Shown: positions 573 to 7,942 of the stretch, in pieces
How positions within the stretch are numbered: the first letter of the stretch is position 1
How the letters are laid out: each line of letters begins with the position of its first letter
Source: a virus
Lineage: Duplodnaviria; Heunggongvirae; Uroviricota; Caudoviricetes
IMG/VR virus record: IMGVR_UViG_2529293139_000009
Direction: 5' to 3' (one strand)
Length of the DNA stretch: 7,942 bases
The notes under the pieces: generated by a model
What the model saw: only the letters and a program-made list of their open reading frames with translations
Database searches by the model: none
Told to the model about the DNA's origin: nothing
Translations under genes and position numbers: made by a program

Positions 573-1736
573 TCACTCATCATCTTCTGTTTCGTACTCC
601 ACATCAGAAAGCCTGACCTCAAGCTCCAAGGACGTCGTGAAGCCGCTATTATTCAGAAAATGTGTCACCTTAGTGATTGTCCAGTCCTGCTCGTCTATGA
701 CGCGCTTAAAGCCTGACACTTTGACCGGCGTTTCCGTGTAAATATCTGCCCGACCAGTAGCCAGGCTGATGGAGAACTCCGCAACGCCCCGTTGCAGTTT
801 GTCCCACTTCGCCTGAGCGGCGCGCATAGCCTGCGCTTTTGTGGCATATACCGTGGTCAGGGCAAAAACGTTGTCAGCTTCACCGGCCATGTATTCACCT
901 TCGCGCGCTTCCGGTACTTTTGGCGCTTTCTTCTGCGTGACCGGTTTCGCTTTCGGGTGCTCCAGTGCGCGCAGGTGTTTTTCTTTCTTTTTGCGTTTCA
1001 GTTTTACCTTCTGCTTTTGCGGCTTCGGGTCTTTGGTGTGTAACCACTTTGCCGTTACGCCGGTGTAAGCTCCACGGTCAGCAATCGCAAAATGATGACG
1101 GTCACCGTCGCTGCGGGTGATGGTAATCTGCGGGATTTTTTTACCGCTGGCAGTCACCCCCTGCCCCGCTTTGAGAAACAACAGTTTTCCCATTTTTACC
1201 GACACCTCACCGCCGTTGCGTTCAGCAAGGCGGGTCAGAAATTTCGCATCAGACTCCTGCGACTGGTCGATGTGCGGGATTTTAATTCCGTCCAGTGACG
1301 GCGCGACACTGGCTTCCAGCTTGTTACGGGAGGCTATCGCCTCAACAATCGCACCGAGCGTGGTGTCATGCCATGAGCCTTCACGGCGGGAATTGAGCGT
1401 CCCGCGAAAATCTGCACTCCGGGCGCGGATGGTAACCACATCCGGCGCGCCCCGGTGTTCAACCTCATCAACGGTGAATTTCCCTTTGCATACCAGGGCA
1501 AAACCTTTCCAGCCGATATACACCGTCAGGACAGCGCCACGAACCGGCAGCCCGACCTGCCCGTCGGCATCGTTCAGTTCAATATCAAGCTGGTCAGCCT
1601 CAAAGCCCCGGTTATCCGTCAGGGTCATGCTCATCAGACGGTCGCTGATATTGCCGGTAATATCCCTGCTGTCGAGCATCAGCATGTAATCCGGCGTCAG
1701 CGTACTGCCTGCATCAAATGTCAGCGCATCCAGCAT
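573..1736 (-). CDS. D: Tail protein gpD (387 aa), P2 D-like late tail gene product
   Basis: 387-aa ORF recognised as P2 gpD by sequence and by position (last gene of the tail operon before ogr). Its ATG overlaps the U stop (TAATG). Confidence 0.9.
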   Translation of the reverse strand: MLDALTFDAGSTLTPDYMLMLDSRDITGNISDRLMSMTLTDNRGFEADQLDIELNDADGQVGLPVRGAVLTVYIGWKGFALVCKGKFTVDEVEHRGAPDVVTIRARSADFRGTLNSRREGSWHDTTLGAIVEAIASRNKLEASVAPSLDGIKIPHIDQSQESDAKFLTRLAERNGGEVSVKMGKLLFLKAGQGVTASGKKIPQITITRSDGDRHHFAIADRGAYTGVTAKWLHTKDPKPQKQKVKLKRKKKEKHLRALEHPKAKPVTQKKAPKVPEAREGEYMAGEADNVFALTTVYATKAQAMRAAQAKWDKLQRGVAEFSISLATGRADIYTETPVKVSGFKRVIDEQDWTITKVTHFLNNSGFTTSLELEVRLSDVEYETEDDE

Positions 1737-2215
1737 TATCCCGCCCCCGTCATACCCGTGAATTTAGTCGCCATACTGCCAGCCTTACCGATGAGCGATT
1801 CCGCCTGTTTACCGATATCGCCATAAAGCGCGGCCAGTGATTCATCAACGCGGGTGAGCGACAGCGTAAAATCAATTTTCCGGGGTGTGCCGTCTGCAAA
1901 GAAAATACTCCCTGTTTCATTCACCCTGCTGATGACATACATGCCGTAAATCATGCCGGTGCCATCCAGCAACGGCCACGCCCGACCTTCCTCTGCCATC
2001 AGTCTGAGCGTGGTCATCGTCAGCTTGCCGCCGGTCAGTTCGGGATAAAGCACGCCGGCAAGCGTAATGTTTTCCTCACCCACACCGAGAAACTGAAAGG
2101 CATCCCGTTTACCGATACGGGAATTTGACGGCCAGCGATAATCTGATTCACGCTGCATGGTCTGGTGTGGCAGCGTCTGGCGCATAAAAACAAACATACC
2201 TAACGCGAGCATCAT
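1736..2215 (-). CDS. U: Tail protein gpU (159 aa)
   Basis: 159-aa ORF between T and D, recognised as P2 gpU. A strong RBS GGAGGTGA sits 6 nt upstream, directly after the T stop codon. Confidence 0.9.
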   Translation of the reverse strand: MMLALGMFVFMRQTLPHQTMQRESDYRWPSNSRIGKRDAFQFLGVGEENITLAGVLYPELTGGKLTMTTLRLMAEEGRAWPLLDGTGMIYGMYVISRVNETGSIFFADGTPRKIDFTLSLTRVDESLAALYGDIGKQAESLIGKAGSMATKFTGMTGAG

Positions 2216-2229
2216 TTTTCGTCACCTCC

Positions 2230-4677
2230 TTAACCGTCATGCATCATGCTGGCACGGGCGCGCGCACGTTTATCCCGCTCATATTTTTCGAGCGCATCCT
2301 GTAACTGGCGGTCGAGCTGAGTCCCCGGCGCAGTACCGCCCGTCAGACTGATGTGATATTCGTTTTTACTCTGGTCCACATAAGAGCGGCCAGCCGGTGC
2401 CGTAACCGGCTGATAAGCCTGATAGCCTGCATAAGAGCTGGTCGCCGGAATATAACCACCGGTGCCATACGTGGCGGCATGAGTTCTGGCGGCGGTCTGG
2501 TCAAGTGTGTCTGACTCTTTGTTGATAACACCGAGTTTTTCCAGTACCCAGTCAATACCACTGCGCAGTTTGTTGAACGCATTAAGCGGCAGCATCAACG
2601 CGTCAGCCAGTGCCTGCCCGAACATGACGCCCGTGTCACGGCAACGGTTCAGGGTGTCCTGGGTGGCTTTAACCGGGGCAATCAGGTTTTTAAACCACTG
2701 CCACGCGGCCTGTAACTTTTCGCCCAGCCAGTCAAACACCGGCTTAAGTGGCGTGAACAGTTCCCCCACCGGCGCAAATGCCGCTTTCAGCCCTTCCACC
2801 ACACCGCCAAAGAATGCGCTGACAGGCTCCCAGTATTTACGGATAAGCAACGCCCCGGCGACAATGGCGGCCACCACGGCCACAACCGGCCAGCTAATCG
2901 CTCCGATGGCGGTCATAACAGCACTGCCAACCGTCGTGAAGATTGCCCCCATTGCGCCTGCTGCCGCGATGATGGCATTGATGCCGGTGATAACCGGCCA
3001 GGCTACGAGGCCAATGGCACCGATGACACCAATCAGTGCCAGTGCACCACCGACAATAAGTCCGATGGTTGACGCCAGTGATTTGTTTTTCTGGATCCAG
3101 CCGTCGAGTTTTAACACATACTTTGTGGCCGTCTGCGTGAGCTTACGCAGTGCGCCTTCCTGCTGGTCAAACAGGTCAGTCCCCACCGCCTCATAAGCGG
3201 ACTGAAACTCTTTAAAGTCACCGCCTAGGTTGTCCTGCATGATATTTACCAGCTCGGCAGTCTTCCCGTCTGAGGCTTTAAACGCAGCGGTCAGTTTGTC
3301 CAGCTTTCCGGTTGAGGCGGCAGTCATCAGCACGGCGGCGGCTGAGCTGGCCTCCTCCCCGAAAATAGTTTTCATGTATTCAGCCTGCTGGGCAGTACCG
3401 AGCCGGTTTTTCTCAAAACTGGCCTGCATTTCTTTCAGAATGGTAAATATTGGCCGGGTGTTTCCCTTGCTGTCTGAGGTTTTCACGCCAAGCTCTTTGA
3501 GTGCATCCCATGCTTTTCCCGTCGGTGCCTGCAGGCGGCTTAACACGGCACGGCTTCCCGTCCCCGCCATTGAGCCTGTGATTTTTGCATCATGCAGCGC
3601 CCCGACCATTGCGGCGGTTTCTTCAATGCTGACACCGGCATTTTTTGCCACAGGTGCGGCATAGGTCAGCGCATCGCTCATACCGTCAAAATCGGCGGCG
3701 GTTTTGTTCATCGTCATGGAGAGAACATCCCCGATATGAGCGACCTTATCGTTTGAAAGCTGAAAGGCGGATTTCATCCCCATCAGCAGGGCGGCGTTTT
3801 CTTCCATCGTGCGGCGGTTCGCCAGCGCCATATTCAGCGTGACCGGCGTTGCCGCCTGAATGGCATCAACATCCCCACCCGCTTTCGCAATAATAATCTG
3901 CGCACCGGCCGCATCATCCGCCGAGGCGGCGGTGTTGTCGCCGAGCTGGCGCGCCTGTTTGCGGAGCGCGGCCATTTCGGCGGAGTCTTTTGCCACTCCG
4001 AGCACAGCCTGTAATTCTGAGTTTTTCTGCGCAAACTCATAACCGGGCATCAGCAGCTTAACTCCGGCCATCGTTCCCGCCGCCGCAATCCCCACACCGG
4101 CAGCGCCCACTGAGGCCATATTTCCGGCCAGTTCCTTGCCGGCCTGATAACGCTGTTTGACTGCGTTAAGTTTTGCCTGTTGTTCACTGACACGCGCCAG
4201 TGCATCGCGCTGACGGTTAAGCTGTGCGGTGGTTTCACTGATACGGTTTTTCAGCCCCTGCTCATCATGTGCAAGATTGCGGGTATTAATTCCCACAGCG
4301 GCCAGTTCCCGCTGCTGGCGCTTAACGGAATCCGTCAGGCGGTTATATTTCGCCTGTAAGTCCTCCGCCGCACGCTTCGCGGATTCCAGCACTTTCGCCT
4401 GAGCACGTGTCGGACGTTCAGTGTTTTTAAACTGTGTGGCAAGGGCTTCGGCCTCCTGCCGTGCCTTTTCAAGTGCATGACCAGTCACGGCGAGCTGTGC
4501 GCTGGTCTTGCGAAATCCCTCAATACGGGATGCGTGACCGTTCAGCTCGCGCAGTGATTTTTGTGTTTCCCGGATATCCCCCGACAGCGACTTGCTCGCT
4601 GTGCGGATGGATTTAAACGGGCGGGATGCCTGGTCAACAGCCCTGAGCAATACCTGTAATTTTACATTGTTACTCAT
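2230..4677 (-). CDS. T: Tail tape measure protein gpT (815 aa)
   Basis: 815-aa ORF with an N-terminal coiled-coil-like, Ala/Gln/Arg-rich region and a long Gly/Ala/Ile hydrophobic segment (residues about 533-612), typical of tape measure proteins. Size and position match P2 gpT. Confidence 0.92.
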   Translation of the reverse strand: MSNNVKLQVLLRAVDQASRPFKSIRTASKSLSGDIRETQKSLRELNGHASRIEGFRKTSAQLAVTGHALEKARQEAEALATQFKNTERPTRAQAKVLESAKRAAEDLQAKYNRLTDSVKRQQRELAAVGINTRNLAHDEQGLKNRISETTAQLNRQRDALARVSEQQAKLNAVKQRYQAGKELAGNMASVGAAGVGIAAAGTMAGVKLLMPGYEFAQKNSELQAVLGVAKDSAEMAALRKQARQLGDNTAASADDAAGAQIIIAKAGGDVDAIQAATPVTLNMALANRRTMEENAALLMGMKSAFQLSNDKVAHIGDVLSMTMNKTAADFDGMSDALTYAAPVAKNAGVSIEETAAMVGALHDAKITGSMAGTGSRAVLSRLQAPTGKAWDALKELGVKTSDSKGNTRPIFTILKEMQASFEKNRLGTAQQAEYMKTIFGEEASSAAAVLMTAASTGKLDKLTAAFKASDGKTAELVNIMQDNLGGDFKEFQSAYEAVGTDLFDQQEGALRKLTQTATKYVLKLDGWIQKNKSLASTIGLIVGGALALIGVIGAIGLVAWPVITGINAIIAAAGAMGAIFTTVGSAVMTAIGAISWPVVAVVAAIVAGALLIRKYWEPVSAFFGGVVEGLKAAFAPVGELFTPLKPVFDWLGEKLQAAWQWFKNLIAPVKATQDTLNRCRDTGVMFGQALADALMLPLNAFNKLRSGIDWVLEKLGVINKESDTLDQTAARTHAATYGTGGYIPATSSYAGYQAYQPVTAPAGRSYVDQSKNEYHISLTGGTAPGTQLDRQLQDALEKYERDKRARARASMMHDG

Positions 4678-5097
4678 TCGTGTTTCCGCTTCGCCGGAGC
4701 GCCTTTTCGCGCCATGTGATAAGTTCGGTCAGGCTCATGGGATACAGTTCTGATGGCGGCCAGTGAAATATCACTGCCACATCCGCCATCAGGTCATCGA
4801 CCGAGAGATTTTTCGGAAACGTTACTGCACCGAGTTCGGCGACAAAAAACCGACCACCTTACCGGCCAGCGCCACAAGGTCAGGCAGTTCCAGCGCGGCG
4901 ACCTCCTGCTCGGTCAGCATCGGTGCCGTCATGCGCGGCAGCACTTTAATCAGTGCATCGACTTCGGAGTTTGCGACCGCAGCCAGACTGACACCGCGCA
5001 GCGTCCCGGCATTGGGTTTCATCAGCGTGACCTGTTCGATAACCTGCTCACCACGCTTGACCGGATTGTCCAGGGTAATCACATTTTCTTTGTTCAT
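4670..5097 (-). CDS. E': gpE+E' fusion made by -1 programmed ribosomal frameshift (85 aa of E plus a 57-aa extension, 142 aa total)
   Basis: My hand translation of the -1 frame after the slip site runs VAELGAVTFPKNLSVDDLMADVAVIFHWPPSELYPMSLTELITWREKALRRSGNTNE to a TAA at 4670-4672, overlapping the T start codon by 8 nt. This is the P2 E/E' arrangement, analogous to lambda G/GT. Confidence 0.75.
4822..5097 (-). CDS. E: Tail assembly chaperone gpE (91 aa, zero-frame product)
   Basis: 91-aa ORF between FII and T, recognised as P2 gpE. Contains the slippery heptamer T-TTT-TTG near its 3' end. Confidence 0.9.
   Translation of the reverse strand: MNKENVITLDNPVKRGEQVIEQVTLMKPNAGTLRGVSLAAVANSEVDALIKVLPRMTAPMLTEQEVAALELPDLVALAGKVVGFLSPNSVQ
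4843..4849 (-). other. Slippery heptamer T-TTT-TTG for the E/E' -1 frameshift
   Basis: The minus strand reads GGT TTT TTG TCG in the E frame (plus strand 4843-4849 is CAAAAAA), an X-XXY-YYZ motif. Confidence 0.75.
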
Positions 5098-5125
5098 GGT
5101 TTTCTCACTTCTGAATCAGGGTTAA

Positions 5126-5146
5126 CCGGTCAGCCTGGCTGACCGG
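5126..5146 (-). other. Perfect 21-bp palindrome in the FII-E intergenic region (possible mRNA hairpin)
   Basis: CCGGTCAGCC-T-GGCTGACCGG at 5126-5146, between the FII stop (5154) and the E start (5097). No U-tract follows on the transcript strand, so it is not a canonical intrinsic terminator. Confidence 0.5.
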
Positions 5147-5153
5147 ATGAAAA

Positions 5154-5672
5154 TCACAGGCCGATATTGCGGCGGTGTTGCTCCAGCCGGTCGGCGCCGT
5201 TCACCTTCTCAATCATGTTGATGGTGTCGATTTCGACCAGCTCCTTACCGTCCATCGTCAGCCGGAAATAGGTGCAGACCACGGAAATTTTCGACTCGGT
5301 GTCTTCTCCCTGTTTACCCTCGCCGGTGTCGATTTCTTTCTGACGTCCACGCATGACCACCTCGACGGCTACCGTTTCGCCGGTATCGTCGCGCTGGTAA
5401 GAGCCTGCAAAACGAATCGGCACAGCATCCACACCGGTTGCGGCGTAAAGCTCCCAGATAACCGAATCCGGGAAGCCCCCGAGCGACCACTCCATTGACA
5501 GCGCATCGTCATCAAGGCCGAGGTCTACCGGTGCGCTTCCGTTCATCCCCGCACCGCGATAGTTTTCGAGTTTACGGGTCAGTTTTGGCAGCGTGACGGA
5601 CTTTGCAACGCCCTGATAGCTGTAGCCGTTCAGAAAGACGTTCATTAACTTGAGTTTGCGCGGCATTGCCAT
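5154..5672 (-). CDS. FII: Tail tube protein gpFII (172 aa)
   Basis: 172-aa ORF immediately downstream of the sheath gene, recognised as P2 FII. RBS AAGGAG overlaps the FI stop codon. Confidence 0.92.
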   Translation of the reverse strand: MAMPRKLKLMNVFLNGYSYQGVAKSVTLPKLTRKLENYRGAGMNGSAPVDLGLDDDALSMEWSLGGFPDSVIWELYAATGVDAVPIRFAGSYQRDDTGETVAVEVVMRGRQKEIDTGEGKQGEDTESKISVVCTYFRLTMDGKELVEIDTINMIEKVNGADRLEQHRRNIGL

Positions 5673-5684
5673 CGGTCAGGCTCC

Positions 5685-6872
5685 TTAATTGCTGTTAACC
5701 GAGGTGACCAGATTTGCCAGGTATTTATCGGTAATACGCTGGCGCAGGGTCAGGTTTTCAAGAGGAGGAACCGGGGTATAGTCGTAGTCGATATACAGTT
5801 TTCCGGCCTTAAGGGTTTCCGCATCGTTGGATTCTTTGCTGAACCAGCAGGTCGCATCCACGATATAGCCGTTTGTTTTCAGCTCACGAAATTTGGCATT
5901 GATGCCGTCAACGATGTCGCGAATCAGCGTTGCGGTGATGGGCTTGTCAACCGCCCACATGTGCGCCTCAGCCATCGTGTCGGCCAGCACCTGCGCGGTG
6001 CGGGTGTAGTTTTCAAAGAGGAACAGCGGGTCATCAGAGCAGGTACGGTTACCCCAGAATCGGAAACCGTCGCGGCGAATCAGCGTAGTGACGCCTGACT
6101 CGTTAAGCAGGTCAGCATCGGTGCCGGACTCCTGCAAATCCCAGAATACAGATGCGCTGATGCCGGTAACACCGTTTACCCCGACGTTGGACAGCGTTTT
6201 ATGCCATCCCTGCTCCTGGTCGATTTTAGCGCGCAGACCCAGCGCACGGGCGGTGGCATACGCGGTGGCGGTGGTACTGGTGACCGTATCCCATGCGAGG
6301 AAATCCGGCCAGATGACCATCAGCTCACGCTGGCTGAAATTCTGGCGGTAGGCTTTCACCTCGGAAATGGTCTTACAGCCCCATGCGCTGATATATCCGA
6401 AAGCGCGCAGCTTCTGACAGACGGATGCCAATGCAACTGCCACCTCTTTGGTATCCAGTCCCGGCACACCGAGAATACGCGGTTTAACACCGGTTACCGA
6501 CTCCGCCGCCAGCAGGGCTTTTAGTCCGGTGTACTGACCGTTTTCGTCGGTGGTGCCGATGATATTGGAAACGGTCTGCGCGAGTTTCGTTTCCTCGTCG
6601 CCGGTGCCGTCTTCCACACGCACGACAACGGTGACCGGTTTTGACTGGTCGGCGATGGCCTGCAACGATGCCGCCAGCGTGCCTTTTTTACCGGCCTTTG
6701 CAATTGCGCTCTGCACATTGGTAATCAGCACCGGTTTATTGACGGGGAAGGTTTCCGCATCCGCATCGCTGGCCGTGCAGACCATGCCAACAATGGCGGT
6801 GGATACAGTGGAAATGACGCGGGTGCCGTCGTTAATCTCCAGCACCTGCACGCCGTGATGATAGTCACTCAT
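5685..6872 (-). CDS. FI: Contractile tail sheath protein gpFI (395 aa)
   Basis: 395-aa ORF, first gene of the FI-FII-E-T-U-D block, recognised as P2 FI. RBS GGAG 8 nt upstream of the ATG at 6872. Confidence 0.92.
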   Translation of the reverse strand: MSDYHHGVQVLEINDGTRVISTVSTAIVGMVCTASDADAETFPVNKPVLITNVQSAIAKAGKKGTLAASLQAIADQSKPVTVVVRVEDGTGDEETKLAQTVSNIIGTTDENGQYTGLKALLAAESVTGVKPRILGVPGLDTKEVAVALASVCQKLRAFGYISAWGCKTISEVKAYRQNFSQRELMVIWPDFLAWDTVTSTTATAYATARALGLRAKIDQEQGWHKTLSNVGVNGVTGISASVFWDLQESGTDADLLNESGVTTLIRRDGFRFWGNRTCSDDPLFLFENYTRTAQVLADTMAEAHMWAVDKPITATLIRDIVDGINAKFRELKTNGYIVDATCWFSKESNDAETLKAGKLYIDYDYTPVPPLENLTLRQRITDKYLANLVTSVNSN

Positions 6873-6931
6873 CCGTTTAACTCCGTGGTTAATGGGTGAG
6901 TGTTATTTTCAGTTGTGCCGGAGATGTCAGG

Positions 6932-7525
6932 CTATTTGTCCCGGTTGGCTAAGGGATGACACAATTTATTCTTTGCCGCTGATGAGGGGAGTTTTTTATA
7001 GAGCGTGGACAGGCCAATATCAAAAATCAGCGCCACGCGTTGACGTGATTCACCCGCAGCCAGCAACCGTCCTGCCTGTTCCCACTCACTCGCGGTGAGC
7101 TTCGGACGTCTGCCACCAATACGCCCTTTGGCTCTGGCCGCTTCCAGTCCGGCGCGTGTCCGCTCGACAATGAGTTCTCGCTCCATTTCAGCCAGGGGAC
7201 CCATCACATGAAAGAAAAAACGCCCCATCGGCGTGCTGGTATCAATAGCATCTGTCAGGCTGCGAAAATTAACGCCGCGTTCGCGCAGCTCCTCAACCAG
7301 AATGACCAGATGCCGCATACTACGCCCCAGCCGGTCCAGCTTCCAGACTACCAGAGTGTCACCTGCTGATAATGTTCTGAGCAGTTTTTTCAGTCCCGGT
7401 CGGTCGGACTTCGTGCCGCTGATTTTATCCTCAAAAATCCGCTCGCATCCTGCGCACTCCAGCGCGTTACGCTGCAATTCCGTGTTCTGGTCATTTGTTG
7501 ACACGCGTACATAGCCAATAAGCAT
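6932..7525 (-). CDS. Serine DNA invertase of the Gin/Pin/Cin/Hin family (about 197 aa)
   Basis: N-terminus MLIGYVRVSTNDQNTELQRNAL carries the catalytic serine motif, followed by DTLVVWKLDRLGRS and the conserved GRFFFHVMGPLAEMERELIVERT block, with a C-terminal helix-turn-helix (VALIFDIGLSTLYKK). This is near-collinear with Gin and Hin as I recall them. Start set at the second ATG (7525) because the GGGGG RBS abuts the first ATG at 7531. Confidence 0.9.
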   Translation of the reverse strand: MLIGYVRVSTNDQNTELQRNALECAGCERIFEDKISGTKSDRPGLKKLLRTLSAGDTLVVWKLDRLGRSMRHLVILVEELRERGVNFRSLTDAIDTSTPMGRFFFHVMGPLAEMERELIVERTRAGLEAARAKGRIGGRRPKLTASEWEQAGRLLAAGESRQRVALIFDIGLSTLYKKLPSSAAKNKLCHPLANRDK

Positions 7526-7552
7526 GAGCATCCCCCTGAATAAAAACCGGAG

Positions 7553-7942
7553 ATGATGCCAGTTGCCCGTTATCTCTGCATTTTCATAAACGTTGGTTTG
7601 GGAGAAGGCTCTGCATTACCTGTTGGTGTCCCTGTTCCGTGGCCTTCAGCCACTCCGCCAACAGGCTGGCTGAAATGCAATGGTGCAGCTTTTTCTGCTG
7701 AAGAATACCCGGAACTGGCAAAGGCTTATCCGACAAATAAATTGCCTGATTTACGTGGTGAGTTTATTCGCGGCTGGGATGACGGGCGCGGGGTTGACTC
7801 TGGACGAGGTTTGTTGACGGCGCAGGCGGAAACAAAGATAACTAACCACCACGGCAATGGCGGTAACGCTGATGATATTTCGGCTGGTGTCTCCGGTTCA
7901 CCTCCCAAAAAACTTTGTCAGAAACGCGGATTCGGCAGTTAA
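7553..7942 (+). CDS. Tail-fibre variable C-terminal segment (Mu/P1 S-variable-like), alternate-orientation cassette of an invertible segment; possibly truncated
   Basis: The stretch PVGVPVPWPSATPPTGWLKCNGAAFSAEEYPELAKAYPTNKLPDLRGEFIRGWDDGRG resembles the conserved start of Mu/P1/e14 tail-fibre variable parts just after the crossover site. The first 13 or so codons lie outside the putative invertible segment, and the ORF's stop codon is the last 3 nt of the window. Confidence 0.6.
   Translation: MMPVARYLCIFINVGLGEGSALPVGVPVPWPSATPPTGWLKCNGAAFSAEEYPELAKAYPTNKLPDLRGEFIRGWDDGRGVDSGRGLLTAQAETKITNHHGNGGNADDISAGVSGSPPKKLCQKRGFGS
7581..7606. other. Candidate 26-bp invertase crossover site (hix/gix/cix-like)
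   Basis: TTTTCATAAACG-TT-GGTTTGGGAGAA fits the imperfect-palindrome architecture xxxxxxAAACx-NN-GGTTTxxGAxAA of hixL (TTCTTGAAAACCAAGGTTTTTGATAA, from memory). It lies 55 bp upstream of the invertase start, inside the 5' end of the tail-fibre ORF. Confidence 0.55.

Follow-up and report, generated by a model that had tools for sequence, protein, structure and literature searches.

A 26-bp site identical to pixR beside the serine invertase gene of a P2-like prophage

A short imperfect palindrome lies between a serine recombinase gene and a tail-fibre-like reading frame at the edge of a phage tail module, and the question it raises is whether these elements form a DNA inversion switch and, if so, of which kind. 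The DNA analysed here (the window) is the whole stretch of 7,942 nucleotides from the IMG/VR record IMGVR_UViG_2529293139_000009. It comes from NCBI assembly GCA_000190815.1, scaffold GL871772.1, to which positions 932–7942 of the window are 100% identical. We conclude with high confidence that, in this P2-like prophage, the palindrome serves a Pin-type (Din-family) inversion switch as the crossover site nearer the invertase. Neither the switch, a textbook one, nor its arrangement, which is widespread in P2-like prophages, is new.

The window is the tail module of the prophage, read on the minus strand (Table 1). The host element has the P2-like genes D, U, T, E, FII, FI, H and ogr, with the switch placed between H and FI. 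The window encodes one recombinase, of the serine type, and no tyrosine recombinase; an inverton of the tyrosine-recombinase kind (Rci shufflon, FimB/FimE type) was rejected because the only recombinase present is of the other class. Of 5426 complete E. coli genomes, 2586 have a megablast match to the invertase region. Elsewhere in the module, a slippery run (GGTTTTTTG) at 4843–4851 on the minus strand lies at the end of the E tail-chaperone ORF, with the GpE-domain ORF coming after it in another frame, and looks like the programmed frameshift arrangement of P2 E/E+E′.

Table 1. Features of the 7,942-nt window, with positions counted from its first nucleotide.
Feature	Position	Strand	Remarks
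Ogr/Delta zinc-finger ORF, 93 aa	273–554	minus	P2-type late-gene activator; downstream of D
D	573–1736	minus	
U	1736–2215	minus	
Tape-measure protein T	2230–4677	minus	
E and E′	about 4670–5097	minus	
Tube FII	5154–5672	minus	
Sheath FI	5685–6872	minus	
Serine recombinase ORF	6932–7531	minus	Resolvase and HTH_7 domains
Serine DNA invertase, 197 aa	6932–7525	minus	ATG at 7525; MLIGYVRVSTNDQ N-terminus; Ser9
Predicted Fis-dependent recombinational enhancer	7436–7507	minus	invertase nt 19–90; homology to the cin enhancer annotated in the P1 record
Distal Fis-type G-N13-C 15-mer	7441–7455		gene nt 71–85; gene-sense GCGCAGGATGCGAGC; one base different from cin
Proximal Fis-type G-N13-C 15-mer	7490–7504		gene nt 22–36; gene-sense GTGTCAACAAATGAC; one base different from gin and pinE
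Spacer, site to invertase ATG, 55 nt	7526–7580	minus	RBS AGGGGGA; hairpin 7545–7564; plus-strand ATG at 7553
129-aa ORF with phage tail collar domain	7553–7942	plus	
Crossover site, invertase-proximal, 26 bp, identical to pixR	7581–7606	minus	pixR identity, consensus match, conservation
Outer half-site	7581–7592		
Core dinucleotide	7593–7594		plus TT, minus AA
Inner half-site	7595–7606		
Promoterless alternative 3′ tail-fibre cassette (collar domain)	7595–7942	plus	orientation not fused to H; Pfam Collar 8.5e-16

The 26-bp site and its neighbourhood

The plus strand reads TTTTCATAAACG TT GGTTTGGGAGAA at the site, an imperfect palindrome in which 8 of 12 half-site positions are symmetric, just as the first-pass annotation had described it. 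Its reverse complement, TTCTCCCAAACC AA CGTTTATGAAAA, agrees at 26 of 26 positions with the published pixR of the e14 Pin system, and the same 26-mer is the pinE-proximal site of e14 in K-12 MG1655 (pix site table and Din-family consensus from PMC3241671). The Din-family consensus TTCNNNNAAACNNANGTTTNNNNGAA has a single match in the window, which is this 26-mer on the minus strand with one mismatch, where 0.03 matches are expected; the two 12-bp imperfect inverted half-sites and the 2-bp core fit TTCNNNNAAACN NA NGTTTNNNNGAA. The earlier proposal of a hix/gix-like crossover site is supported, and can be narrowed to a site of the Hin/Gin/Cin/Pin type that is identical to pixR.

The site is strongly conserved among relatives. 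In 70 unique viral-contig relatives of the invertase, the mean top-base frequency is 0.96–0.99 across the 26-mer and 0.515 over the 40 nt past the inner half, which fall into at least 19 unrelated classes. Its position is fixed about 55 nt upstream of the invertase in 75 viral-contig relatives, with a spacer of 55 or 54 nt (54 nt in Mu gixR–gin), and this spacer is about 90% conserved whichever cassette follows the site (mean top-base frequency 0.90 in the 70 unique relatives). When a 46-mer spanning the site was matched exactly against species-representative genomes, the only hits were two e14-like E. coli loci.

Within the spacer, between the site and the invertase RBS, there is a terminator-like hairpin on the minus strand followed by TTTTTATT. 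It is kept in about 70 relatives and could insulate the invertase from transcription leaving the segment. We also note a viral contig (L044, 3420–3445) in which the invertase-proximal site has an outer half of the H-gene type (TTCTCCCAAACC AA GGTATGCGAGAA) and is followed by the normal invertase spacer; its outer half-site has possibly been swapped, by gene conversion or as an unusual recombination product.

The inner half-site GGTTTGGGAGAA encodes G-L-G-E of the tail-fibre cassette, in frame. The palindrome had been placed about 10 codons before a PVPWPS motif, which agrees with the ORF from 7553, where the site ends at codon 18 and PVPWPS begins at codon 27. The parallel drawn with the S genes of Mu and P1 stands in one respect, in that these genes cross over in a site coding for (N/Y)LGL(Q/R)E, but fails in the other, as no PVPWPS or collar motif follows. 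The placement of PVPWPS nine codons past the site is common to e14-type collar cassettes, unlike Mu or P1 S.

The invertase gene and a predicted Fis-dependent enhancer

The invertase could start at either of two ATG codons. The 197-aa product from the second of these has an exact record in GCA_000190815.1, whereas the 199-aa form from the upstream ATG has none, and we therefore take 7525 to be the true start. The ORF is intact, and the product has the N-terminal catalytic domain, with Ser9, and the C-terminal helix-turn-helix of a small serine recombinase (Pfam Resolvase, 1e-51; HTH_7, 7.6e-13); it is 86% identical to PinE of K-12. A simple promoter scan found no sigma-70 consensus promoter for the gene. 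Residues K46, K47, R50, Q150, R153 and L154 match Hin K47, R48, K51, Q151, R154 and L155, with what is presumably a numbering offset of +1 between the two proteins. In the literature, these Hin residues are listed as contacts to Fis or the enhancer that only the Fis-dependent invertases conserve.

A recombinational enhancer had been guessed to lie in the 5′ part of this gene, at 7350–7520, and that interval does contain a candidate. In the P1 record, cin nt 19–90 are marked as the enhancer for inversion by Cin. An alignment of this stretch with the invertase genes of e14, Mu and the window needs no gaps, and places its equivalent here at 7436–7507. Nucleotide identity to pinE, gin and cin is 0.85, 0.74 and 0.78, respectively, in this stretch versus 0.78, 0.69 and 0.66 elsewhere in the gene, whose 5′ part is less variable overall.

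The stretch contains two Fis-type cores, 49 bp apart, start to start, in the register used here, whereas the spacing in the literature is 48 bp. The outer edges of the two putative cores are 64 bp apart, and the centre of the proximal core is about 97 bp from the centre of the site; the Hin enhancer measures 65 bp, has Fis sites at both ends and lies some 100 bp from hixL (PMC3798978). Across 70 unique genes synonymous variation is nearly nil at codons 9–13, 26 and 28–31, and the codons between vary; as the putative Fis cores overlap conserved codons (VSTND and CAGCE, with the catalytic serine), this conservation is confounded with protein constraint. Homology, geometry and synonymous conservation are suggestive of a Fis-dependent enhancer at this position, not proof of one.

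The invertible segment

The partner of the site lies outside the window, in which neither a repeat finder nor a search for the 26-mer with up to three mismatches found a second copy. The first-pass annotation had called for an inverted partner upstream, and it is present beyond the window end in the source scaffold, inside the P2-type H gene: TTCTCGCATACCTTGGTTTGGGAGAA, at scaffold positions 4404–4429, inverted, and in frame within the 430-aa H gene. Read from outer to inner it is TTCTCGCATACC TT GGTTTGGGAGAA, with the same inner half and TT core as the window site. The scaffold segment is flanked by two inverted sites with an identical core dinucleotide, 1516 bp apart centre to centre, a distance that includes a gap of 503 N within the segment of this draft assembly. 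The H frame at the partner site reads ...LLAYLGLGEGSALPVGVPVPWPS..., with the cassette joined in frame. Strain 2023CK-01509 has the same pair of sites, and in phage pro483 and the complete genome of strain MS20653 this pair ranks first among the inverted repeats.

The ORF from 7553 had been regarded as a tail-fibre ORF, a designation that we revise. Its first 13–14 codons are part of the spacer and outer half-site, which are conserved with the invertase whichever cassette comes next, and tail-fibre sequence starts at the crossover; it is probably not an independent gene. Where annotation calls a 'phage tail protein' from the invertase-adjacent ATG, the preferable reading is an unfused alternative 3′ cassette of H, and the H C-terminus in any one assembly is one of two states. 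As assembled here, the ORF ends after 129 aa, because one surplus A in the run at 7907–7912 (A6) puts it out of frame and brings in the TAA at 7940–7942. Apart from this base, the cassette equals the H-fused cassette of the same scaffold and the active cassette of strain 165, both of which have A5, and the A5 form is also present in 32 complete E. coli genomes. The extra A may be a homopolymer sequencing error, or it may mark a real pseudogene.

Among the 32 genomes, the one inspected is strain 165. Its locus (L002, 4802–4827) belongs to a Mu-like/pinE prophage, where the cassette is joined to another constant tail-fibre part, and the identity with the window cassette starts at the site core (TTGGTTTGGGAGAA); cassettes are therefore shared between unrelated prophage types. 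The cassette tip (7780–7942) had no match in the phage collection, distant mode included. By analogy, there is a small chance that the 7553 ORF is translated alone as a free tail-fibre-tip protein that would block host surface receptors against other phages, in which case inversion would also switch a prophage-encoded defence protein. Such receptor blocking was reported in 2025 for the e14 chimera StfE2, whose start is the equivalent ATG beside pinE (PMC12529663).

In the source scaffold the segment (4404–5945) is assembled as a near-perfect mirror image around the gap (4920–5422). Starting at the core dinucleotide, its arms agree over more than 500 nt, across the cassette and into the beginning of the same assembly-chaperone gene, as far as the gap; they differ only by one A, the H arm having A5 and being in frame and the window arm having A6. 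These arms may be two real copies, one of them broken, or the culture may have held both orientations and the assembly put the same cassette at either end, the extra A then being a homopolymer error. Should the assembly be correct, a flip would toggle between an intact and a truncated copy; if it reflects mixed orientations, it would itself be evidence of inversion in the sequenced culture.

Inversion is seen in comparisons among relatives. The prophages of MS20653 and 2023CK-01509, both complete E. coli genomes, are 97–98% identical; their collinearity extends to one base past each 26-mer, and the segment between is inverted, with the breakpoints in the two sites. The tail-fibre assembly protein WP_000228828.1 adjoins H in one of them and the invertase in the other. 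The annotations give H a complete coding sequence in either strain, with lengths of 393 codons (1182 nt) and 430 codons (1293 nt). Flipping MS20653 in silico at the core dinucleotides gives an inverted junction of which 80% or more is matched in 11 complete E. coli genomes; the best of these (100% coverage, 98.7% identity) is the one full-length match. Megablast matches to the invertase flank in phage genomes end at 7592 or 7607, the centre and edge of the site. Exactly one inverted partner lies 1.1–3.4 kb upstream in 50 of 75 viral-contig loci, many of the other loci being shortened by contig ends. For the e14 P segment, sequencing and qPCR have demonstrated inversion at TTGGTTTGGGAGAAGG (PMC12529663); in EPEC, phase-variable inversions of P2-like prophages were documented with sequencing and PCR (PMC4272514). 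In five viral contigs (L026, L047, L052, L070 and L079) a further, directly oriented pix-type site lies upstream of the invertase-proximal one; these may be three-site systems like the multi-variant EPEC P2-like prophage, or carry a second switch nearby.

The activity of the switch in this strain, its Fis dependence and its cleavage chemistry we infer from what is known of the family, as follows. Dimers of the invertase would occupy the window site and its inverted partner inside the H tail-fibre gene. If these behave as in Hin, Gin and Cin, both sites would come together, on supercoiled DNA, with the predicted enhancer within the first 90 nt of the invertase gene, bound by Fis. Together with two Fis dimers on the enhancer, the invertase dimers would form the invertasome described for the family (PMC3798978). 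All four strands would be cut at the central TT/AA dinucleotide with phosphoserine links, one pair of subunits would rotate by 180 degrees, and the ends would be rejoined, turning a segment of roughly 1.5–1.9 kb. In either orientation the constant N-terminal part of H, ~275 residues, is predicted to be fused to a receptor-binding C-terminal cassette, a different one each time and with its own assembly chaperone behind it; either cassette would be fused in frame because the inner half-site codes for G-L-G-E in frame.

It is improbable that a genuine pix-type site is all that survives here of a dead switch, with the segment frozen in a decaying prophage. Such decay would fit the frameshift in the invertase-proximal cassette, the gap in the segment of a draft assembly, and the annotation of the e14 counterpart stfE as a pseudogene in K-12. 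However, the invertase ORF is intact, with its catalytic Ser9 and the residues matching the Hin enhancer contacts, both 26-mers are intact with the same core, and all ORFs of the P2 tail module are uninterrupted. The frameshift itself is a single A in a homopolymer run and possibly a sequencing error, and the same cassette on both flanks is what a mixed-orientation culture would be expected to give.

The near-identity of the scaffold arms, over more than 500 nt bar one base, could also suggest that RecA-dependent homologous recombination between long (>500 bp) inverted cassette copies mainly flips the segment, and that the 26-mer is not special. We consider this very improbable, as the long identity begins exactly at the core dinucleotide of the 26-mers, and the mirror arms, with an assembly gap between them, may have arisen in assembly. 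Moreover, related prophages in complete genomes have an inverted repeat of only 27–30 nt, yet both orientations are present among them. A functionless palindrome arising by chance, lastly, is ruled out for practical purposes: symmetry as such is at chance level (23 palindromes of the 12-2-12 form with at least 8 of 12 positions in the window versus 21.3 ± 4.4, or about 21, per shuffled window), but not the 26/26 identity to pixR, the unique consensus match, the conservation in 70 relatives, the fixed 55-nt position in 75 relatives or the break in homology at the site edge.

Relation to known inversion systems

As a Pin-type switch in a P2-like prophage, the locus alters nothing in current understanding, and its main importance is for annotation. 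P2-like, e14-like and Mu-like prophages all use an identical 26-bp site, to which at least 19 unrelated cassettes are attached; the shared site and varied cassettes fit the established view of tail-fibre tips as exchangeable modules. Invertases of co-resident prophages could act on each other's segments, and PinQ reportedly acts on the e14 segment.

The closest named system is e14 Pin/pix. The invertase-proximal site is pixR itself, the inner half-site GGTTTGGGAGAA and the AA/TT core are shared, the spacer from site to invertase ATG is conserved in relatives, and the collar-type cassettes are of the same kind, starting G-L-G-E-G-S-A-L-P-V-G-V-P-V-P-W-P-S. The two differ in that e14 is a lambdoid remnant (P segment stfP-tfaP / tfaE-stfE, with pinE), whereas the host element here is P2-like (Peduovirus-type). 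The outer half of e14 pixL is CTCTCGAAAACC, in stfP/ycfK, whereas that of the partner here is TTCTCGCATACC, in the constant part of P2 H, and the invertase has a C-terminus 13 residues longer than that of PinE. With this partner outer half and a P2-like host element, the locus falls outside e14 Pin/pix in the strict sense; it works like Pin and is a close relative, not the e14 locus.

Mu Gin/gix has the same layout (constant part, site, Sv-U, U′-Sv′, site), with the invertase transcribed away from the segment, a spacer of 54 nt versus 55 nt here, and a proximal Fis-type core that differs at one base. The gix sites have a different sequence with a GA core, and Mu Sv lacks the collar and PVPWPS after the crossover; Gin (or Cin) has about 79% protein identity to the window invertase, the lowest in the compared set. 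In P1, the cin enhancer aligns ungapped to the equivalent stretch here with 78% nucleotide identity and a distal core one base different, but cin is transcribed towards the segment, cixL overlaps its 3′ end, and the enhancer-to-site geometry differs. Hin/hix of Salmonella, the switch of flagellar phase variation, also has two 26-bp sites, and the size and distance of its enhancer resemble those of the predicted one here, but the half-sites differ and Hin flips a promoter, not a coding cassette. The P2-like prophages of EPEC E2348/69, like phage pro483 and many E. coli prophages, are the same type of element, with invertible tail-fibre segments; pro483 has the identical 26-mer and partner. Only the particular cassette tip differs here.
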